Part shown: in pieces, positions 6,752 to 45,417 of the stretch
Numbering within the stretch: the stretch's first letter is position 1
Layout of the letters: each line of letters starts with the position of its first letter
Assembly: GCA_944322335.1 (NCBI GenBank)
Contig: CALUOU010000003.1
Coordinates: forward strand, 722 to 64,721
Reading direction: 5' to 3'
Length of the DNA stretch: 64,000 nt
DNA from: an uncultured Bacteroides sp.
GTDB taxonomy: Bacteria; Bacteroidota; Bacteroidia; Bacteroidales; Bacteroidaceae
Program-made: the position numbers and the translations under genes
Notes under the pieces: generated by a model
Database searches by the model: none
What the model was told of the DNA's origin: nothing
The model's input: only the letters and a program-made list of their open reading frames with translations

Positions 6752-7570
6752 TTAGTCTTTGATAATTTTTACATTGGTCAGCATTTCCAACAGGATGATA
6801 GAGTTGTGCAGTTGCACACGCGCTTGTTCGTAATTGACCACTGCGGCGGAGCGTCTGGCCCGTTCCAGCGATAGCGTGATAATGTCGATTTTCCCTTGTA
6901 CGAAATCATTTTCGGAAATCTGCATTTGTGCGTTGTACAAAGCGGCTGACTCCGATTTGGCTTTGATGGTAGCCAATTGTTCTGTCACTTCATTATAGGC
7001 TTCCAGCACCTTCAGCCTTCTTTCTTCCATGACTTCCTCTTGGGTGTATTGGAGCTGTTCGATGTCATACCGGTGTTTTTTCAGTTTGAGTCTTCGGTTG
7101 ATGATGTCTCCAAAAGGAATCCGCATGCTGGCACCGATGTAGAAATTGTGTTGGGTGGAGGTCATGGCGCTTTGATAAATGGGGGTGAACTCGTCGCTGT
7201 TGTCGGCCAGGAGGTTGTAGCGGCCGTAAGTGTACGACCCGTTCACACTGAAGAAGTTCCACCAGTCCCGACGCTGGATGCGGTATTCGTTTTTGATCTC
7301 CTCCACTTCTGACTGGGCGCGTTTGACTGTGGCGTTTTCAACGACCGCATCCAGGAATACAGAAAGGGGCGGAAGCTCCAGCTTTTCCAAAGCCCTCGGA
7401 AGCATCAAGGCGCTTTGGGTGGTGGAGGTCACCAAAGAGTCGGACCGCTTGAGCTGTTCCAACACTTTGACGCGTTCCGCACGGGTCTCTTGCGCTCCTG
7501 CGGGGAGAGCCGCTGTTCCTAACCCTGCCATAAACAGAGCCAATGTGATATTTTTAATCGTCTTATTCAT
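6752..7570 (-). CDS. Short TolC-family outer membrane protein
   Basis: Signal peptide from MNKTIKNITLALF at 7570, which avoids overlap with the upstream gene. OEP-like helical repeat including ENDFVQGKIDII. Confidence 0.75.
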   Translation of the reverse strand: MNKTIKNITLALFMAGLGTAALPAGAQETRAERVKVLEQLKRSDSLVTSTTQSALMLPRALEKLELPPLSVFLDAVVENATVKRAQSEVEEIKNEYRIQRRDWWNFFSVNGSYTYGRYNLLADNSDEFTPIYQSAMTSTQHNFYIGASMRIPFGDIINRRLKLKKHRYDIEQLQYTQEEVMEERRLKVLEAYNEVTEQLATIKAKSESAALYNAQMQISENDFVQGKIDIITLSLERARRSAAVVNYEQARVQLHNSIILLEMLTNVKIIKD

Positions 7571-7593
7571 AGGGCATATTTTCTTTTGTTGCG

Positions 7594-8763
7594 TTAAACA
7601 TCTTCTTTTTGCACAAATGCGGTGAATGTCCGGAACAGGATTTTCAGGTCCAGCCAGAAGGAGAACTCTTGGGCGTAGCGGATGTCCAGCATCTTCCGCT
7701 CTTCTGCCGACATTTTGCCTGCATTGCCCCGTTTTTCCACTTGCCATAAGCCAGTCAGTCCTGCCGGTGCCATGAAACGGTCTATGTAGGTGTCGCTGGT
7801 CAACAGTTCCGCCTCATACAGGGGAAGGGGACGGTTGCCGACAATGCTCATGTCGCCTTTCAGGATGTTGAATAGCTGAGGAAGCTCGTCTATGCTGTAT
7901 TTGCGGATGAAACGTCCGACACGGGTGACACGCGGATCATGGGCTATTTTGACAAAGGCATTTTTCTCTTTTTTCTCTTTTTGTTTCAGATATTGTTCCT
8001 CTGTGATGATTTGGTCATCAGAGACCAAGATGGGCTGCTCATGGTTTTTCTCTTCTATAAGTTTTTCGATGGAGAAATCCGTCTTTTCTTCATTCCGAGC
8101 CTCTTCTTCCGTGTTATACTGGTTGAATTGGTTCAATTCTTTCAACCGCTTGTCCGCATTGGTGTACATGGACCGGAATTTCAGGAAATCAAAAACTTTG
8201 TAATTGCTGCCTACCCGTTTGGAACGGTAGATAATGTTTCCCTTGCTTTCCAGACGAATGGCGATGGCGGTCGCAATGAAAACGGGTGAAAGCAGTATGA
8301 TGGCGATGCTGGTGAAAACAAGGTCGAACAGCCTTTTCCACAAAGGCAGGTGGAACGTGTTTATGGAGCTTCGTCTGGACTGGGTGAACTCCTCCAGTTT
8401 ACGGGCTTTCCTTTTTTGTAGGAAAGTTTTCATGTTCTCAATGGCTTGTGGAGTGGGCAAGCTGCTTAATGAGTTTTGTACGCCTGCCTGTATATAGCGT
8501 TTCCGGTCATCGGGAGAGATGCCTTCGGTGATGAGGACAATGTAGACTCGCGGGAAGCGTTGGTGCAGAAAGGCTATTTCTTGGCAATCCTTGTCAATCT
8601 GTTGTGGCTCGTATAGGAGTGTTATGTCGTATCGGTCACGCATGCCGTCAATGAGGGAAGCGGCTTTACTGTATGATGCCGCTACCAGAAACATTCCTTC
8701 CGTCATTTGGTTGAGGCGGTTGATGGTCATGCTGTTTTTCCCTATATAAATATAGTATAACAT
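7594..8763 (-). CDS. Priming sugar (phosphoglycosyl) transferase with N-terminal receiver-like domain
   Basis: KRLFD, KFRSM, DPRVTRVGRFIRKYSIDELPQL and GLTGLWQV motifs. Confidence 0.9.
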   Translation of the reverse strand: MLYYIYIGKNSMTINRLNQMTEGMFLVAASYSKAASLIDGMRDRYDITLLYEPQQIDKDCQEIAFLHQRFPRVYIVLITEGISPDDRKRYIQAGVQNSLSSLPTPQAIENMKTFLQKRKARKLEEFTQSRRSSINTFHLPLWKRLFDLVFTSIAIILLSPVFIATAIAIRLESKGNIIYRSKRVGSNYKVFDFLKFRSMYTNADKRLKELNQFNQYNTEEEARNEEKTDFSIEKLIEEKNHEQPILVSDDQIITEEQYLKQKEKKEKNAFVKIAHDPRVTRVGRFIRKYSIDELPQLFNILKGDMSIVGNRPLPLYEAELLTSDTYIDRFMAPAGLTGLWQVEKRGNAGKMSAEERKMLDIRYAQEFSFWLDLKILFRTFTAFVQKEDV

Positions 8764-36171: not shown

Positions 36172-37278
36172 TATTGGTGTCCGATAAAATTTTAGCATCG
36201 TAAGTGAGAGTAATCCATGGCGTATTCCATCGTGGTTTACTCCCTTTACATTGCAATCCAACCCCTCTATGTGAAAAGTTCCAACTGTGTCGGTCCTTCC
36301 GGTGCGGCTTTCAGTATGGCCTCCCAGTCTTTTCCCGGATGGTTGAACAGGCTGTAGAAATTCACATAGTACATTAACATTATCCGGACCATTGTCGCCA
36401 GTCTGGAGAAGCTCCATGAGCGTGTCAGCCCTTTCTTCATGATTGTCAACAGAAGATTGGCTATGAGTGTCACCCAAATCTGTATCTTGATGGCATTTGC
36501 GCTTTCCCCATAAAAGTACTTGAGGGGGAAGTTCTGTTTTATCTGCTTGAAGAGCAATTCTATCTCCCAACGTTTGCGGTAGATGGCAATAATCTCCGTA
36601 GGGGCTGATTCCATGTCATTGGTCAACAGCTGTACAAGTCTATGCTTTCTCTCATCGGCATGCGTGATGATACGCGCGTGATGGATGACAGTTCCCCCTT
36701 CCTTGAGTACCTTGGTGAATGTTACATGCTGTATGCGGACCTCCATAAGTCCGTCCGGAGTCTGGTACATCATGTCCGAGAGTATGTTGTATTTCAGATT
36801 TTTCTTCATCTTCGTGACATAAACGACTCCCCTTTTCGTCAGTTCCTCAAACTTCTCATAGTCAATATAAGCACGGTCTATGGCCAGGATGTCCCCCTTG
36901 TCCAAGGATGCGGGTTTCAGCATGAAGGAGTCATTGGTGGCGGCGGAAGTGAATCGCACGTCCGATGGGACGCCCTCGTTGGCGTGGATAACGGTATGCG
37001 CCTTTATGCCGCCTTTCTTACTGCCAGTTTTCGGATGACGGCCGGCGCCTTTGAATATCAGGTTGGAGAAAAGGGTGATGGTCGTGGAATCAATTATCCG
37101 CAGGCGTTTCATCCAGGACGGCTCCTAGCCGCTCTGGCTGTCCGCTAAAATGTGTACTTTTGCCCATGGTTACTTCTTTTTGGTGTGGTAACCGCAAAGT
37201 AACCACATGGGGCTGAATCTACCAAATAGAAACGCCCCCCTTTTTTGAACAACTTAAAGTTTTATCGGACACCAAATA
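36172..37278 (-). mobile_element. IS4-family insertion sequence, internally deleted (1107 bp)
   Basis: Terminal inverted repeats TATTGGTGTCCGATAAAA / TTTTATCGGACACCAAATA. The 9-bp direct repeat TTTAAGAAT lies at 36163-36171 and 37279-37287. Confidence 0.88.
36267..37167 (-). pseudogene. IS4-family DDE transposase pseudogene
   Basis: The start MGKSTHFSGQP at 37167 joins out of frame to the DDE part (IIDSTTI, DRAYIDY, YRKRWEIELLFKQIKQN). An in-frame TAG lies just before the DDE part. Confidence 0.85.
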
Positions 37279-37399: not shown

Positions 37400-37429
37400 T
37401 TTGTTGATATGTAGGCAATTCTATATTTG
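37400..37429 (+). promoter_or_regulatory. Candidate promoter of the RiPP precursor
   Basis: TTTG at 37400-37403 and TATATTTG at 37422-37429, about 56 bp before the ATG. Confidence 0.55.
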
Positions 37430-37485
37430 CAGGTGAAATTGTGTGCTCGTTATTTAATTGTGTGTTTTATAATATTTTTAATGAT

Positions 37486-37740
37486 ATGGAAATAAAAAGA
37501 TTGGATGTACCCAATTTAGGGAAAAGTGAATTTTCAGCTGCTGAGGCAGAGGAGATATTAGGTGGTGTCATGACTGATGACGGATACGAGATCGCGTGTG
37601 TCGGATTGGGTGGTATTTGCAAGGAAAGCTGTAAGGATGGCTGTAAGGATAGTACGAAAGATGGTGGTCTTTGTTCTGATTCTTGTAAGGATGGCTGTTC
37701 TGAAGGGTGTAAGGATTCGTGTAAACCCGGAAATAAGTAG
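37486..37740 (+). CDS. Cys-rich RiPP precursor peptide (double-Gly leader, CxxxC-repeat core)
   Basis: 84 aa. The leader ends in EFSAAEAEEILGG and the 57-aa core has 9 Cys. It lies upstream of a radical SAM/SPASM gene. Confidence 0.85.
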   Translation: MEIKRLDVPNLGKSEFSAAEAEEILGGVMTDDGYEIACVGLGGICKESCKDGCKDSTKDGGLCSDSCKDGCSEGCKDSCKPGNK

Positions 37741-38155
37741 CGGTCTATAAATAAGAAGAATGTGGATTGTCGCCCACGCCTAAGGTTTTGAAGGTAGATG
37801 AGATGGGGCTTTTTAAAGGCTTGCCAATATCTGTGTCTCTGAGCAAATTTCATTCAGATGTTTAATGTGACTGAGTCGCGTGAGGAGTGGATATATGTTT
37901 TTTTAGGGGGCAATTGGTGGTAGGGGTGATTTCTGCGTGTTTTTCCTTTGTTCAAAAATGATTCTGATTGAGGATAGGATGATCGTTTGTTCGCATCATT
38001 TTCTTGCGTTATCAATGTAGATGGAAGGTCGATTCTTGTAGTTTAGCATTTGTTGCTGGCGGTATGTGCATAACGTGTGCCTATTGCATTGGTGCTTACG
38101 CCGATCTTGTATTTATGTTATTGAAATCTCGAAAAAAAATAAACGGATCACTATT

Positions 38156-39634
38156 ATGAAATATATGAAATACATACTTAATCCTGCTTATTTGTTGAGG
38201 CAGGATGGAAATAGGGTTATCTTGTTTTATAGAGATGATATTGAATCTAGTGGTGAAGAGTGGTTCACTTTCATTCATCCTTTGCAGGCATGTATGCTGT
38301 CCTTTTTTAGAGGTGAAGAATCCTTTGATAAGGAACTGGCCAAGTGTTCAACGTTTTTTCAGATTTCATTTGAGAAAATGAAAAGGATTATTTCTCCTTT
38401 TGTAGATAATCCAAAGTGGTTTGCAATCTCTCAAAAAAATGGTCATAACATATGTTTCCCAAAAAGAATGTTGATCGAAAAAAAAGAGAACATGCGACGT
38501 CCGTTCTATTCCGTTGAAGATTTCACTTACTGTAGAGATCCTGATTATCATACTCATAGACTTCAGTATCCAACAGGGGTTAATATAGAGTTAAATATGA
38601 AATGCCGTACTGATTGCATTTATTGTTATGCTAATAAGAAAGCGTATGCGAATGATTGTTTAAGTACGCAAATGATACTCGATTTTATTAGGGAAGCAAA
38701 ACGGGGAGGAGTCCTTAAAATGGATATTAATGGGGGTGAAGTTTTACTCCATCCAGGAATAAAAGAAATTTTGCAGACTCTATTGGAATGTGATTACAAC
38801 CCTTTGATTTCAACCAAATTACCTGTAAGTCATGAAATGGCAGATTTCATTAAATCTTTGGGGATTAGCAGGATTCAGTTGTCTTTAGATTCTGTAGACC
38901 CATTGGTGTTAAAGTCTTTGTTGAAGGTGGATATATCCTATATTAGGGAGATAGAGAAAGCTTTAGATTATTTGAATCAGATTCATTTGCGAACAGACAT
39001 TAATGTAGTTTTGACCAAAATGAATTCTAATGTCGATGATTTCAAAGCTTTGATATCTTTTCTGTCTAAGTATGAGGTAATAAAGTTTGTTAGAGTAAGT
39101 CCTTGTGGGTATTCTCTTTACAAAGATGGATTTGATGCATTGGCACCAACGGTAAAAGAAATCGAAGCTATAGAATCTTGTATCGGGAATTTGAGAGATG
39201 ATTACCCCAATCTTAATATTAAGATTTCTTCTTACGAGAAAGGTGACATGTATACGTTGGCATGTCGGAAGCAAAGTTTTCCCAGGCGTGCAATGTGTAC
39301 AGGAAATGTAAGAAATGCTGTAGTGTTGCCTAATGGAGATGTTACTATATGTGAGGAGTTGTATGCTCATCCTAAATTTATTATCGGCAATATTAAAACT
39401 AACAGTCTGAGCGAAATTTGGAATTCTGAAAAGGCTGTTCAACTCTATCATTTCGCATTTAATAGATCTTCAGACAGTATTTGCTATGAATGTAGCGTGC
39501 GGCAGAAATGTCGGGTAGGCAAAGGCGTATGTTGGAAGACTGTATTAATGGCTTATGGAATGGACAAGTGGGATTATCCTGACCCTAGATGTCCTGCAGC
39601 TCCAGAGTTTAAAAATATATTTTATCATACTTGA
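38156..39634 (+). CDS. Radical SAM/SPASM peptide maturase
   Basis: CRTDCIYC (CxxxCxxC), NGGEVLLH, and a SPASM-type C..VLPNGDVTIC...IGNIKTNSLSEIWNS...CYEC....KC....GVC...DPRCP tail. About 140-aa N-terminal extension. Confidence 0.92.
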   Translation: MKYMKYILNPAYLLRQDGNRVILFYRDDIESSGEEWFTFIHPLQACMLSFFRGEESFDKELAKCSTFFQISFEKMKRIISPFVDNPKWFAISQKNGHNICFPKRMLIEKKENMRRPFYSVEDFTYCRDPDYHTHRLQYPTGVNIELNMKCRTDCIYCYANKKAYANDCLSTQMILDFIREAKRGGVLKMDINGGEVLLHPGIKEILQTLLECDYNPLISTKLPVSHEMADFIKSLGISRIQLSLDSVDPLVLKSLLKVDISYIREIEKALDYLNQIHLRTDINVVLTKMNSNVDDFKALISFLSKYEVIKFVRVSPCGYSLYKDGFDALAPTVKEIEAIESCIGNLRDDYPNLNIKISSYEKGDMYTLACRKQSFPRRAMCTGNVRNAVVLPNGDVTICEELYAHPKFIIGNIKTNSLSEIWNSEKAVQLYHFAFNRSSDSICYECSVRQKCRVGKGVCWKTVLMAYGMDKWDYPDPRCPAAPEFKNIFYHT

Positions 39635-39722
39635 TTTGTTATGGATGCGTGCTATGTTAAAAAAAACGGTGTGTTGTGATCTCAACAAGCTGTAGTTGTA
39701 AAAAAATGTAATGTTTGGTACT

Positions 39723-42149
39723 ATGAGAAAAAGATTCTTATTTGTCATATATCTCTTCTGTCTTTTAGGGGGAAAGCTTTTGGCACAGTCTAAGAATATC
39801 GTTGTTTGTGATCAGGGGGAACGGATTCCTTTGGAGATGGTTACCGTATTGTTTTTTGATGAGAAGAAAGATGTTATAACTACCGCAATAACTTCTGAAA
39901 CGGGAGTGGTATCGTTGGATTCTGGAAACTCGTCAAAGATCAGCACCCTTAGATTTAGCCGTTTGGGCTATCATCCATTAGAAGTTAAAATGTTGCAGTT
40001 GGCTGATACGGTGTTTCTTCAGCCTTCAACACAGTTAGATGAAGTGGAAATCACCGCTTACAGGCAACTTGTCAAGTTAAAGCCGGGAAAACTCATTTAT
40101 GAGGTGGAAAATGACCCGGAAGCTCGTGGCAAAAACACATTTGACGTTATGCATAAAGTCCCTTTGCTAGTTGTCAACCGTCACAACGGCACTGTCTCAT
40201 CCGAAGGAGGGCAGACGATTGTCTATCAATTGAACGGCAAGCGTGATGCCTTGTTCTATGGAAATCTGGAAAGCGTCCTGCGGGCATTGGAAGCCGGTTC
40301 GGTGAAGCGGATAGAAGTGGTCACACAGCCTGGCATCGAATATGGGCCTAATACGCTTTTGGTAAACATCGTGACCAAAGGCAGGATTGAAGGATTTAGC
40401 AGTACCGTCAGCACGGATGCGAGCGACAGCAGATGGAGAAACACTTTGTTTGGCATGACAAAATACAAGAACTTCACCATGTCCTTGGCCTATACCAACC
40501 GTTGGGATTACGGCCATAGTGCTGTGGACGAACGTGAAGAATATCGTGAGAACTCTACGGACAATCATTTCTTCTACAAGCGGACAGATGATTATGGCTA
40601 CAAGGCGGATGCCCACGATATCGAAGGGACGGCGAGCTATGAAATCGGCGATTTTTCCTTGCTGAGCGCTTACGGGCGTGTCATTTTGAGCAACGCCAGC
40701 AATCCACATCAGGATATGCGTGAAGTGGGAACGATGTTCCGTCAGGACGGCACACGCAACTATTCTTACGCCAATCGGAGCCACAGGCTGTTTCTGAACA
40801 GTGAGTATGATGCCTACCTCTTTTACGAGCGGAGCTTGGGCAGGGGCGGGCAGCAGGGGAAGTTCTTCCTTGGTTATCGTTTCTACAAACGTCCTTTCGA
40901 TGAGACGACCACACTGAAATACGAAAGTCTGGACTTTGCAGACGATGTAGATGCCGGTCAGAGGGATGACTTCTATGATTACGTCCGGAGGCATAAATCC
41001 TCCAGAGGATACCACACGGTGGAGACGGAATTCACCCGTCAGATAGGCACCCGTCATAAGGTGTCAATAGGCGGGAAATACATCATGAGACCGGAGAAGG
41101 AAGATTACACACTGGACGTGTCACCCGTCCATGCGTCATCCTTCACGAGGAGTGAAGAGGGGACGAGCCGTTACACCCACCACCAGCACGTGTTCAACGG
41201 CTACGCTTCGTATAATTATCTGGCATCCCGTTTCAGTCTTACGGGCGGTATTGTCTATGAGCTGCAGCATGACCGTTTGCGTCATTCGGTCGCCTCGCAC
41301 AATCTGGACAAGACTTTCAACAACGTTTTTCCGCGCCTTACCATGGCATATGCCTTTCCCAGAAAAACATCCTTGGAGCTGAGCTATGCAATGTCGGCTC
41401 TCCGTCCTGACATCTTCGCTCTTGACCCCTATGTAGATGCCACTGTCCCCATGCAGCTGTCGTACGGCAATCAACGGCTGAAGCCTGAGATATCCCATGC
41501 CTTGCAGTTGAGCGCCTACCATGATCTGGGCCGCTATACGTTGCGGTGGGCATTGTCACATCAGCATACCAACCGCATCATTTTGGATTACCGTTTTTTG
41601 GATGGAGACATGCTCCACCTGACCAAAGACAATCTGGGAAGGAAGGATCTGACCGCCTTGAGTGTCTGGTTCTCAGGACGGCCGGTCCGCAATCTGTTTA
41701 TACGCCTGTCGCCGACTGTGCAGTATACGTACTATGACGCTTCAAGGCTTTCTATGCAGAACGACGGGTTCTTTTTCCGGCTGCGCGGCGAGATGGAACT
41801 GGAATTGCCGCATGATTTCTACTTGGGTGCCGACGGTGGCTACAACACGCGCTACATCATGTTGCAGGGGCGAGGGAGCACCAGCTATAATTTCACGTTC
41901 TCTCTTTCTAAATATTTTTTGAAGAATCAGTTGCGGGTCTCTTGCAGTGCAGGAAGTTTTTTCCCAGTACATTATACGAAACACAATGACTGGTCGGCCG
42001 ATAGCTACCGTTATCATTCCTCTTACCGGTATTATCAGGCATATTTCAACGTGGGTGTTCGCTACACTTTCGGCCGTTTGAAGGCCCGTGTGAAGAGCAC
42101 TTCCAAAACCATACAAAATAACGACCTTAAAACAGATTATAGTGAGTGA
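39723..42149 (+). CDS. TonB-dependent receptor-like outer-membrane beta-barrel protein
   Basis: Signal peptide, carboxypeptidase-regulatory-like N-domain (LDEVEITA), plug-like VKRIEVVT, YGNQRLKPE and terminal VGVRYTFG. Confidence 0.85.
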   Translation: MRKRFLFVIYLFCLLGGKLLAQSKNIVVCDQGERIPLEMVTVLFFDEKKDVITTAITSETGVVSLDSGNSSKISTLRFSRLGYHPLEVKMLQLADTVFLQPSTQLDEVEITAYRQLVKLKPGKLIYEVENDPEARGKNTFDVMHKVPLLVVNRHNGTVSSEGGQTIVYQLNGKRDALFYGNLESVLRALEAGSVKRIEVVTQPGIEYGPNTLLVNIVTKGRIEGFSSTVSTDASDSRWRNTLFGMTKYKNFTMSLAYTNRWDYGHSAVDEREEYRENSTDNHFFYKRTDDYGYKADAHDIEGTASYEIGDFSLLSAYGRVILSNASNPHQDMREVGTMFRQDGTRNYSYANRSHRLFLNSEYDAYLFYERSLGRGGQQGKFFLGYRFYKRPFDETTTLKYESLDFADDVDAGQRDDFYDYVRRHKSSRGYHTVETEFTRQIGTRHKVSIGGKYIMRPEKEDYTLDVSPVHASSFTRSEEGTSRYTHHQHVFNGYASYNYLASRFSLTGGIVYELQHDRLRHSVASHNLDKTFNNVFPRLTMAYAFPRKTSLELSYAMSALRPDIFALDPYVDATVPMQLSYGNQRLKPEISHALQLSAYHDLGRYTLRWALSHQHTNRIILDYRFLDGDMLHLTKDNLGRKDLTALSVWFSGRPVRNLFIRLSPTVQYTYYDASRLSMQNDGFFFRLRGEMELELPHDFYLGADGGYNTRYIMLQGRGSTSYNFTFSLSKYFLKNQLRVSCSAGSFFPVHYTKHNDWSADSYRYHSSYRYYQAYFNVGVRYTFGRLKARVKSTSKTIQNNDLKTDYSE

Positions 42150-42150
42150 T

Positions 42151-43197
42151 ATGAGCCGTTTGTTGAATGATATAATACTAAAGGAATTGTCTCTCATGCG
42201 TAAGGGAGATCTCTTTTTACAACATGGTATAATGGGGTATGCCATCTTTTGTTTTTGGTATGGCCGCCTGAAAAATGACAATAAATATACAGAAATCGCA
42301 GAGCGATGCTTAATGCACGTTTGCAAATCCGTCAATGATAAATGTTCGTTGGGCGTTTTTGATGGACTATCTGGCATTGGAATAAGTATATGTTACCTTT
42401 GTGCTGAGGATTATCTGCAAGGGAATCCTGACGGTTTGCTTCAAAGCATTGATGACTACATGTTTAAGGTGATACAAAAGGGGTTGCAGCAAGAGCATAT
42501 TGAGGATGAAAAATATATGGATTCGTTGTTGGATGTAATGCTTTATATAAATGTTCGTTTAAGAACAGAGATTAGAAAACCTTATGAGAAGCATATTTTA
42601 GAGCTGTTCTTTATAAAAATATTAAATTGGCTATATCAAAATGCCGGTTCTTTGCTTTTCGAAGAACCACTACCTGCCAATTTATCATATAGACTTGCAA
42701 AATTCTTTTTTGTTTTGGGATATGCTTGTGACTTGAATTTTTATAATTATCGCATAAAGAGAATAATAAAAGAAATTGAAACCGTTGTATTGTCACGCAT
42801 TCCATATAGTAGTTTTAATCGATTAACATTATATTGTTCGTTGAGCATACTTACACGTCAAATAAGATTGGGCGAACGATGGACTCTGTACATTGAAACA
42901 TTGAAAAACAGTATTTCAATAGAAGAAATATTGTGTAAAGAGATAAAGTCTTATAACATGTTTTTTTTCGATGGCTTGGGAAGTGTTTATTTATTATATA
43001 AATATTGCAACAAAAATGGATTGATATTTGATGTTTCAGAGGATTGTTTTATAAGAAAACTGCAAGCTTCAGAAATTTGGAAAATGTTGGATGATTCTTT
43101 TGATTACAAGCCTTTGGGACTGGATGGCTTTTTGGGATTAATAATGGTTTTTGAAAACAGGCTAAATTTTTTTAATACAGTAAATGGAGAAAATTGA
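42151..43197 (+). CDS. Lanthionine synthetase C-like (LanC-like) protein
   Basis: Repeated GxxG loop motifs (QHGIMG, FDGLSGIG, FDGLGS, LDGFLG) in a helical protein. Alternative GTG start at 42142. Confidence 0.7.
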   Translation: MSRLLNDIILKELSLMRKGDLFLQHGIMGYAIFCFWYGRLKNDNKYTEIAERCLMHVCKSVNDKCSLGVFDGLSGIGISICYLCAEDYLQGNPDGLLQSIDDYMFKVIQKGLQQEHIEDEKYMDSLLDVMLYINVRLRTEIRKPYEKHILELFFIKILNWLYQNAGSLLFEEPLPANLSYRLAKFFFVLGYACDLNFYNYRIKRIIKEIETVVLSRIPYSSFNRLTLYCSLSILTRQIRLGERWTLYIETLKNSISIEEILCKEIKSYNMFFFDGLGSVYLLYKYCNKNGLIFDVSEDCFIRKLQASEIWKMLDDSFDYKPLGLDGFLGLIMVFENRLNFFNTVNGEN

Positions 43198-43972
43198 TTT
43201 TAGAGATTTAACTTTCCTTGTCCCTGTCAGATTAGATTCTATCATACGATTAGAAAATCTATTAGTATCTATTGATTCAATCAGCAAAACTTTTGATACC
43301 AATATTTATGTATTGGAGTCTTCTTCATATAAAAATGGGATATTGGAACAGATCTTGCCTAGTAATGTTGAATATGTTTTTGTGGAAGATAAGGATCCGA
43401 TCTTTTACAGGACATATTATTTGAATTATATGGCTCGTATTGTTCATACTGATTATTTAGCAATATGGGATGCAGATGTAATTATTGACGATCGGCAGCA
43501 AATTGAAGCTGTTGATGCATTGAGAAATTGTCATTATGATGTTGCTTTTCCGTATGATGGTCACTTTTATGATACATCGGAAATCATTAGAGAAGTTTAT
43601 TTAACGACAAAAGATGTTGCTGTTTTATTTGACAATATTGGAAAAATGTCGTTGCCTTATGGACATCATACGAATGGAGGGGCCATTTTCTTGAATAGAG
43701 AAAGTTATGTTAACGCAGGTATGGAGAATGAGAATTTCTATGGATGGACTCCGGAAGATGTTGAAAGGTTCGTAAGATGGAAAAATTTGGGATATAAAAT
43801 ATTTAGGTCAGAAGGTCCTCTTTTTCATTTGACGCATCCAAGAGATATCAATGGTCGTTATAATTCTATTTTACAAAAGAGGAATGGCTTTTATTCTTTG
43901 CAGGAAATGGCAGCTTGTTCTGCAGTAGAAATAAAAAAAATGATAAATACTGAAAGGTTCAAATCCTTATGA
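43184..43972 (+). CDS. GT2/GT7-like (galactosyltransferase-related) glycosyltransferase
   Basis: DLTFLVPVR, WDADV and GGAIF...AGMENENFYGWTPED (GT7 C-terminal motif). Confidence 0.82.
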   Translation: MEKIDFRDLTFLVPVRLDSIIRLENLLVSIDSISKTFDTNIYVLESSSYKNGILEQILPSNVEYVFVEDKDPIFYRTYYLNYMARIVHTDYLAIWDADVIIDDRQQIEAVDALRNCHYDVAFPYDGHFYDTSEIIREVYLTTKDVAVLFDNIGKMSLPYGHHTNGGAIFLNRESYVNAGMENENFYGWTPEDVERFVRWKNLGYKIFRSEGPLFHLTHPRDINGRYNSILQKRNGFYSLQEMAACSAVEIKKMINTERFKSL

Positions 43973-45417
43973 AGCATGCATTATTATTAATATGGCATAA
44001 AGATTTTGATCAACTAAAGGAACTTATAGAGTTTTTCGATGGTGATTTTTGCTTTTATGTTCATATTGACAGTAAAAGTGTACTTGATAAAAGTCAGTAT
44101 GAATGGTTGAATCATCATGCTTCTGTGTATAAGAAATTCAAAGTAACTTGGGGTGGTTTTAATTTGCTTAAAGCTGAATTGTTTCTTATAAAACAGGCTG
44201 CTGCAAATACGGAAGTTGATTATATTCATGTCATGAGTGCGCAAGACTATCCCATTCGAAATCTGAAATTCATTAAAAAAGTATTTGAAAAAGAAACAGG
44301 TTCAGAATTTTTGTCTTATTGTAGAATACCTTTTATTGAATGGGATGAGGGAACCTATAATAGATTTGAATATTATAGACCTTATGATTTTTGTGCTAAT
44401 TTCCCTTATTTCGGAAATAAATTGTTGCAGTTGATAGAAAAAGTTCAGGTCACTTTTAATTTTAAAAGGAGAATCCCCAATCAATATGATTATCTATATG
44501 GCGGATCTAATTGGATTTCAATAACCCGTAATTGTGCAGAGTATTTGGTATCTGAGTATAATCATAAGTTCTTTCGTAGATTAAGATGGACTTTTGCTCC
44601 AGAAGAAACCTTTTTCCCGACTGTTATAATGAATTCTCCTTTTGCTGTAAATGTGAAAAATAACAATCTTAGATACATCGTTTGGCATAAAACACGAGAT
44701 GGTCATCCCAAAGTATTAGATCACACAGACTGGGGAGGCATTGTTACAAGTGATGCTCTATTTGCCCGTAAGTTTGAGAATGGCAAGTCAGATCTCTTAA
44801 AATCTTGTTTAAGACGTTATCTATTTCGAGAAGAAATTTTTGCTGAAGGCATTAATGGGGAATGGTTGACTGAGTCTTTGTCTGGGCATTGGTATGATGC
44901 ATCTTTGGGAAGAGCCATATTGGACGTTTTGCCATATGCAGATGCTAAAGATATTGCAGATTTTGGCTGTGGCCCCGGATGGTATACTTATTTATTGAGG
45001 AAACATGGTTATTGCGTCAACGGATATGATGGCAATCCACATGTTAAAGAAATGTCTTCCTTGTTTTTTCAGGACGGTTTTTATTGTCAGCATGTAGACT
45101 TGACTGAATTTTTAGAAATAGACGATCCTTTTGACATGATCATTAGTCTTGAAGTAGGGGAACATATTCCCGATAAATATGAAGATATTTTCATTCATAA
45201 TTTGGTAAGAAATTCAAAAAAGTATCTTCTTTTAAGTTGGGCTTTGCCTAAACAGTTGGGAAGTGGTCATGTGAATTGCCATACCAATGAATATATCATA
45301 GGCAAAATGAAAGAATATGGTTTCTACATTAATACCCCCATAACAAATTATCTTCGTGCCAAAGCTTCTTTTAAATGGTTTCAAAAAACCATTATGTTTT
45401 TTCAGAAATATGAATAG
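43969..45417 (+). CDS. GT14 (beta-1,6-GlcNAc-transferase/branching type) fused to a class I SAM-dependent methyltransferase
   Basis: N-part: HIDSKS, VTWGG, SAQDYPI, GGSNW, PEETFF, LFARKF. C-part: DFGCGPG, SLEVGEHI. Confidence 0.85.
   Translation: MKHALLLIWHKDFDQLKELIEFFDGDFCFYVHIDSKSVLDKSQYEWLNHHASVYKKFKVTWGGFNLLKAELFLIKQAAANTEVDYIHVMSAQDYPIRNLKFIKKVFEKETGSEFLSYCRIPFIEWDEGTYNRFEYYRPYDFCANFPYFGNKLLQLIEKVQVTFNFKRRIPNQYDYLYGGSNWISITRNCAEYLVSEYNHKFFRRLRWTFAPEETFFPTVIMNSPFAVNVKNNNLRYIVWHKTRDGHPKVLDHTDWGGIVTSDALFARKFENGKSDLLKSCLRRYLFREEIFAEGINGEWLTESLSGHWYDASLGRAILDVLPYADAKDIADFGCGPGWYTYLLRKHGYCVNGYDGNPHVKEMSSLFFQDGFYCQHVDLTEFLEIDDPFDMIISLEVGEHIPDKYEDIFIHNLVRNSKKYLLLSWALPKQLGSGHVNCHTNEYIIGKMKEYGFYINTPITNYLRAKASFKWFQKTIMFFQKYE

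Follow-up and report, generated by a model that had tools for sequence, protein, structure and literature searches.

Several described systems invite comparison with the locus reported here. The NCBIfam CXXX-repeat system, which we take to consist of a precursor with repeated C-x-x-x units beside a radical SAM/SPASM enzyme (the TIGR04115 maturase), resembles it in name, and the GG-Bacteroidales system (TIGR04148/TIGR04149) likewise places a GG-ending Bacteroidales leader peptide beside a radical SAM enzyme. Freyrasin (PapA/PapB) is a ranthipeptide with six Cys-X3-Asp thioethers, made by one RRE-radical SAM-SPASM enzyme (PMC9413430). Hybrid clusters of Bacteroidales in which radical SAM and LanC-like genes occur together, some of them with a glycosyltransferase, are known from genome mining; the part of that survey used here reports radical SAM plus LanC genes in two of 195 Prevotellaceae genomes and the combination with GlyS in none (PMC10352776). 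Literature searches on related radical SAM peptide systems found no characterisation of the precursor family described below.

Our window, meaning the whole 64,000-nucleotide stretch of uncultured Bacteroides sp. DNA that was analysed, carries an ORF of 84 aa plus a stop at 37486–37740 (+). Five genes lie 3′ of it on the same strand, forming a six-gene cluster. In our judgement this first ORF is likely to encode the precursor of a RiPP, a peptide made on the ribosome and modified after translation. With freyrasin it shares a leader, a core with many evenly spaced Cys and acidic residues, and a single RRE-radical SAM-SPASM maturase. It differs from freyrasin in that the maturase lies outside the PapB family, the repeat is C-x-x-[G/S] with an acid in 49% of units, and the core has a two-block, 1+3+5 layout; the window cluster also adds sugar, methyl and LanC-like genes, and its host is a Gram-negative Bacteroidales. 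The precursor is thus like multi-thioether peptides (freyrasin, sactipeptides) in outline and is a member of no curated family tested. As far as the part of the survey used here describes the Bacteroidales hybrid clusters, the window cluster resembles them in its GG-type leader, its SPASM radical SAM enzyme, its LanC-like protein without the C...CH zinc ligands and its nearby carbohydrate enzymes; there is no LanB, and an exporter is sometimes missing from those clusters as it is from ours. They carry pseudo-rSAM genes (TIGR04150), which the window cluster lacks, and the same part of the text describes no Cys-periodic precursor of the window type (PMC10352776).

Translation of the ORF gives a 27-residue leader (37486–37566, +) ending in EEILGG, followed by a 57-residue core. 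The leader has the features of the double-glycine type, namely GG at -2/-1, F-12, S-11, E-8 and I-4, and its residues 18–25 form a predicted helix in a structure model of low confidence. The nine Cys of the core fall at residues 38, 45, 49, 53, 63, 67, 71, 75 and 79. A lone Cys38 and the motif C-x-G-x-x-G-x-C (37597–37620, +) lead into block 1 (37618–37659, +), which is made up of CKES, CKDG and CKDS followed by T-K (Cys45, 49 and 53; closing Lys58), with TKDG occupying the place of a would-be fourth unit. Block 2 (37672–37737, +) is made up of CSDS, CKDG, CSEG, CKDS and CKPG followed by N-K (Cys63, 67, 71, 75 and 79; C-terminal Lys84). Seven of the core units are C-[K/S]-[D/E]-[S/G] and one is CKPG. 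A first-pass annotation of this DNA had listed the 27-aa leader, the nine Cys, the seven units and TKDG, all of which match the translation exactly. Only 12 of 1,000,000 shuffles of the core gave six Cys–Cys spacings of exactly 4. The structure model (pLDDT 51.7) falls below 50 over residues 29–84, leaving the core unfolded, and is uninformative on whether the Cys form a stripe along a helix. Neither NCBIfam nor Pfam gave a match to the precursor, E-values up to 10 included, and the leader had no match to TIGR01847.

The same annotation had described a degenerate 12-bp repeat in the DNA. TGTAAGGAT does occur four times, with every copy inside the ORF; chance would give 0.41 copies over the whole window, and none of 100 shuffles reached four. 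However, Tandem Repeats Finder reported just 1.9 perfect copies of a 12-nt unit (37628–37650), and the DNA repeat is therefore mostly a shadow of the protein repeat and of codon choice. Recent slippage was considered as its origin and rejected on this low copy number, on near-saturation of synonymous sites among the precursor orthologues, and on the gene's having zero indels in four metagenomes from four studies. All four carry D69E, one also carries G82R and another G82E, and no other variant was found in them. The anticipated variation in repeat number exists between lineages, which have 7–11 Cys, but not among the four metagenomes; together with the near-saturated synonymous sites, this means that ongoing slippage is not evident. 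The Cys repeat is an old, selected feature of the protein rather than a tract of unstable DNA.

This is a real gene, and purifying selection on it is strong. Compared with L035, the nearest orthologue for which DNA is available, pS is 0.63 and pN is 0.086, giving a dN/dS of 0.065. Its close relatives comprise five database proteins or loci, and the other frames of the locus are closed in relatives. The low complexity of the sequence is the sole point in favour of a chance ORF or a non-coding repeat, and the antisense ORF at 37467–37853 (128 aa) was considered as the real gene in its place. The antisense ORF is not conserved, with stops closing the frames in L035 and other relatives, and was rejected. 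These stops, the dN/dS and the 41 profile matches with the same architecture (below) refute this whole set of readings, to which we give practically no weight.

TAnnTTTG is the -7 promoter consensus of Bacteroidota, including Bacteroides. A match to it, TATATTTG at 37422–37429 (+), lies 64 nt 5′ of the ATG and is a candidate promoter element. The consensus, mostly as TATATTTG, is present 39–81 nt 5′ of the precursor ATG in five of six orthologous loci, against a background of 0.11 per 200 nt on the + strand of the window. The 99%-identical allele P0001 has lost the ATG that opens the 84-aa ORF (NDM to KEK), and the start as called there is an upstream GTG equivalent to window position 37441.

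A profile built from seven sequences and searched against 1.84 billion representatives returned 41 matches, about 33 of which are full length (70–112 aa). The precursor is the type member of an undescribed, uncurated family in gut Bacteroidales. The Cys layout of this family is fixed at 1 + 3 + 5, with spacings of 7–8, then 4 and 4, then 9–10, then 4, 4, 4 and 4; spacings of 4 make up 190 of the 265 found family-wide. All 32 sequences compared have Cys38 and Cys45, which stand 7–8 apart in most. Nine Cys in the 1+3+5 layout is the commonest form (19 of 33 members), and the total ranges from 7 to 11. Block 1 has two or three Cys and always ends in C-x-x-[small]-x-K, while block 2 has three to six (mostly five) and usually ends in x-K. 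In the family alignment the inner Lys are far more variable than the one that closes each block. The block-1 entry motif C-x-G-x-x-G-x-C is also conserved, as is a linker of 9–10 residues between the blocks, which recurs as C-K-x-x-[N/S/T]-K-x-G-x-x-C.

Within the units, the best-kept feature other than Cys is position +3, which is G/S/A in 175 of 190. Position +2 is Asp or Glu in 94 of 190 (49%) and Pro in 24, and position +1 is Lys in 78 of 190. The first-pass annotation had favoured a ranthipeptide synthase that would join each Cys to the beta or gamma carbon of the Asp/Glu two residues on, producing a ladder of thioether rings. The window precursor itself suits such a ladder, having an acid at +2 in seven of its eight units (close relatives have five or six), and there is chemical precedent in vitro for a CX1D ring, since PapB takes Cys-Xn-Asp with n = 0–6 and also Glu (PMC9413430). 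Across the family the acid is not consistently retained: P0024 has it in 0 of 7 units, and L041 has it in 3 of 9 while carrying the same enzyme set. The enzyme does not fall in the PapB family either, since the PapB model NF047865 (cut-off 340 bits) is absent from the best 25 NCBIfam matches listed for the maturase and scores 35–44 bits on its clade relatives. Because PapB tolerates CX0-6D/E (PMC9413430), the Cys-Asp/Glu ladder is possible; it is not favoured, and we rate its chances as rather low.

A sactipeptide-like hairpin is another arrangement to be weighed, in which the Cys of block 1, or of both blocks, would be joined to alpha-carbons either across the hairpin or in the small +3 residue. 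The near-constant G/S/A at +3 and the fixed two to three Cys of block 1 at i/i+4 are consistent with it. Thuricin CD has the Cys spacing C-x3-C-x3-C, as in block 1. Related maturases adjoin CxxxCxxxC cores, and the window enzyme has both SkfB and CteB as structural neighbours. However, Cys occur in both halves of the core, unlike the donor and acceptor halves of known sactipeptides; the maturase scores 35 bits with the AlbA model and 36 bits with the SkfB model, both far under their cut-offs; and no acceptor is singled out. We consider this hairpin doubtful, with a modest chance of being correct.

The division into two blocks (rarely three, P0011 having a third mini-block) is a real modular build from which marks of cleavage sites are absent. 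It had been suggested that internal GG pairs may release multiple cores, but these pairs are not conserved: members of the family have GGI, GSGS or LISA before block 1 and GGL, -GT, -GN, GSS or GRD before block 2, and GG-directed release of several cores is thus unlikely. The blocks might otherwise be released separately after the block-closing Lys, and both the two-block build with its recurring linker and the x-K at the end of each block would suit this. Neither block is preceded by a leader-like hydrophobic pattern, though, and the cluster has no protease. We regard a multi-core precursor, by either route, as very improbable. Conservation of the leader, which the first-pass annotation had proposed to check, is partial: the motif E-x-x-[DE]-[IV]-L is kept across the family, but the terminal GG is kept in a subset only, with SG, AG, ES, DS or NN taking its place in about half of the members.

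Homologues beside radical SAM genes were found, as that annotation had anticipated. The precursor lies directly 5′ of an orthologous maturase (47–78% identical) in seven lineages: the window, L035, the Segatella copri type (L002 and L036-39), L040, L041, L067 and L068. This count leaves out the database-only relatives P0003, P0004 and P0007–P0039. The barrel, LanC-like and GT-A genes follow in the same order wherever the contig reaches far enough. The GT14-methyltransferase gene is found in the window, L002 and L040, and had no match in L041, where other genes follow, or in L067. The spacer between precursor and maturase varies, from 415 nt in the window (37741–38155) and 277 nt in L035 to about 25–30 nt in the S. 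copri type, L040 and L041; no second copy of the precursor was found in the window spacer.

The maturase gene (38156–39634, +) encodes a radical SAM/SPASM enzyme (PF04055 and PF13186) with an N-terminal RRE-like domain. No variation was seen across 30 sequences at Cys150/154/157 (CX3CX2C) or at seven C-terminal Cys. The locus therefore has what is generally expected of a radical SAM/SPASM RiPP system, a small co-oriented ORF adjoining a maturase with an RRE, CX3CX2C and SPASM Cys. In the AF2 model of the enzyme (pLDDT 85.8) the N-domain is beta3-alpha3, of RRE type. The best structural match, over the full length, is the streptide maturase SuiB (PDB 5V1S/5V1T; TM 0.62–0.70), which has the same RRE, radical SAM barrel and SPASM domain at 15% identity; further neighbours include PqqE, SkfB, CteB and anSME. 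SuiB makes a Lys-Trp link, whereas the window precursor has no Trp, and the likeness in fold says nothing on chemistry. A complex prediction for the RRE domain and the leader scored 0.46, compared with 0.28 for the control, and speaks neither for nor against binding.

The maturase is outside every curated family tested. Its best NCBIfam scores are generic (e.g. 79 bits with MftC, whose cut-off is 265). TIGR04115 (cut-off 350 bits) had no match at the locus, with a single match of 10 bits elsewhere in the genome, and in this the window differs from the CXXX-repeat system. It differs from the GG-Bacteroidales system as well, TIGR04148 having no match anywhere in the genome and the precursor having none in NCBIfam.

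More distant relatives of the maturase (31–38% identity) occur in 26 of 249 genomes of the genus, where they adjoin leader peptides, most of which have a GG end. The cores beside them mostly contain C-G-L-G-C-[FY] (a CxxxC pattern) or C-x3-C-x3-C. These neighbours suggest that Cys at i/i+4 is a feature common to the substrates of the entire maturase clade, and that the window's family is its most expanded form, with an added layer of tailoring. Near these relatives a barrel gene is often adjacent and the LanC-like gene is absent; the only homologue of the sugar enzymes is a GT14-methyltransferase (46% identity), about 7 kb downstream in L056. One reading of the window's family is a novel class of cross-link. 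The maturase would act on up to nine Cys at i/i+4 in the 1+3+5 layout, with, for example, the small residue at +3 or the block-closing Lys as acceptor; sugar and methyl decoration would be added with a zinc-less LanC-like protein, and the product would perhaps be a metal-binding or signal molecule imported by the barrel. We advance this tentatively, as a minority possibility of some weight.

The barrel gene (39711–42149, +) encodes an outer-membrane beta-barrel (PF14905) with a weak CarboxypepD_reg-like N-terminus, and is directly 3′ of the maturase in L002, L040, L041 and L067. A plug or TonB-box domain was not detected in it. The peptide could be imagined as a metallophore or metal store that keeps free thiolates, with the barrel as its TonB-type re-uptake receptor and the radical SAM enzyme making some other change. 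A regular array of up to nine Cys, the conservation of the PF14905 barrel with its CarboxypepD_reg-like N-terminus, and the lack of an exporter in the cluster are in keeping with this, as is the fact that the nearest curated enzyme families, MftC and PqqE, are cofactor maturases, the similarity being generic only. The structure model, on the other hand, has no folded core, the barrel has no detected plug or TonB-box, and a conserved SPASM maturase beside cores conserved in Cys only points to Cys as the site of modification. A metal-binding role with free thiolates is, we think, improbable.

Next comes the gene for a LanC-like alpha/alpha-repeat protein (42142–43197, +), which has GxxG repeats and matches PF05147 over residues 26–126 only. 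Its four orthologues share zero invariant Cys/His, CH and WC motifs are absent, and a sequence search of the PDB gave no significant match. The missing Cys/His site agrees with the zinc-less LanC-like proteins that the part of the survey used here places next to radical SAM genes and carbohydrate enzymes in Bacteroidales (PMC10352776). A function as lanthionine cyclase was rejected, as the Pfam match covers the N-terminal third only and no Cys/His is invariant. A lanthipeptide was rejected as well, the Cys-Cys-His zinc site being absent and none of the cluster's six genes encoding a dehydratase. The last two genes encode a GT-A type glycosyltransferase (43184–43972, +; weak PF02709/PF10111), whose orthologues in L002, L040, L041 and L067 are 52–55% identical, and a fusion of a GT14 (Branch) glycosyltransferase with a SAM methyltransferase (43969–45417, +; PF02485 and PF13489). 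On the preferred reading, the peptide is probably both thioether-linked and sugar-decorated. The sugar enzymes and the LanC-like protein could instead serve a glycan unrelated to the peptide.

Selection on the gene, the gene order, the Cys architecture and the RRE-radical SAM-SPASM build of the maturase all support the preferred reading of the ORF as the precursor of a modified peptide. The CxxxC-type cores beside more distant maturases, the promoter-like box and the presence of a C39 exporter with HlyD on contig C2 also count in its favour. For such a precursor, the amphipathic leader (residues 1–27) would be recognised by the RRE-like N-domain of the adjacent radical SAM/SPASM enzyme, which would then modify the core Cys. 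The core would present a fixed scaffold: a lone Cys, three C-x-x-[G/S] units closed by x-K, a linker of 9–10 residues, and five units closed by x-K. Cys thioether cross-links would be the likeliest modification, and the sulfur could be joined either to an alpha-carbon (the sactipeptide type) or to a side-chain carbon (the ranthipeptide type). The conserved linkage of the remaining genes suggests that a methylated sugar would probably be added by the GT-A enzyme and the GT14-methyltransferase together with the LanC-like protein, which would serve as a scaffold and not as a cyclase. The leader might then be cut at the GG by an exporter with a C39 peptidase whose gene lies at another place in the genome, and the product may cross the outer membrane, outward or inward, through the barrel.

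Two findings count against this processing route, namely that about half of the family lacks the leader-end GG and that the cluster has no exporter. Neither a C39 exporter nor a protease is encoded in the cluster. A separate bacteriocin-type locus on contig C2 does encode a C39 ABC exporter (731 aa) with HlyD, and this exporter could serve the precursor in trans. Besides these two, the locus (L062:503-7690) encodes a membrane protein that matches C39 weakly, a Cys-containing peptide with a GG leader (2111–2311), a thioredoxin-fold protein and another leader peptide with a GG end (7496–7690).

Bacteroidales of the gut, among them the Segatella copri complex, rank with the dominant bacteria of human and animal microbiota, and to our knowledge hardly any of their modified peptides has been characterised. 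The family joins a very regular, strongly conserved substrate to a maturase clade of uncharacterised chemistry and to a recurrent sugar/LanC-like tailoring set. That chemistry, once found, would give a function to a whole Bacteroidales radical SAM clade whose partner cores share the CxxxC theme. The precursor is short and has one maturase, making direct co-expression feasible.

The distribution of the cluster fits a horizontally moving island. Its GC content is 0.32–0.37, compared with 0.45–0.52 in the flanks. A search of the 249 other species genomes of the genus found no orthologous maturase (best match 38% identical); Segatella copri HDD04 has one (53% identical), and others occur in gut metagenomes. 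In a family-level sample 3 of 400 genomes were positive, and none was among the genomes searched from a phylum-wide sample of 400. Seven studies supplied gut metagenomes, from chickens and birds, that contain DNA of the window; no RNA run was listed among the sequencing runs with the locus. The six-gene island is common to chicken-gut and human-gut Bacteroidales.

The upstream junction of the cluster varies between strains, since the metagenome contig X5 departs from the window left of 37339. Just 5′ of the cluster is a fragment of an IS4-family transposase gene (36267–37112, -). The cluster seems to be dispensable and decaying in some strains, as the maturase is frameshifted in L035 (L035:1290-1311) and interrupted in L068, and broken precursor alleles of the S. 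copri type are present in the database (P0008, P0014, P0015, P0036 and P0042). One of these alleles is truncated and runs into the start of the maturase, another has a 1-nt frameshift, and three consist of an in-frame precursor N-terminus joined to the last 25–60 residues of the maturase, with most of the enzyme deleted. The broken alleles and the interrupted maturases reflect either decay of the cluster in some strains or assembly errors. The barrel gene is mosaic in composition, with a GC content of 0.49–0.52 over 40–42 kb compared with 0.32–0.37 in the remaining cluster, and is the most divergent gene among the orthologous clusters (31–43% identity, against 52–55% for the GT-A gene).
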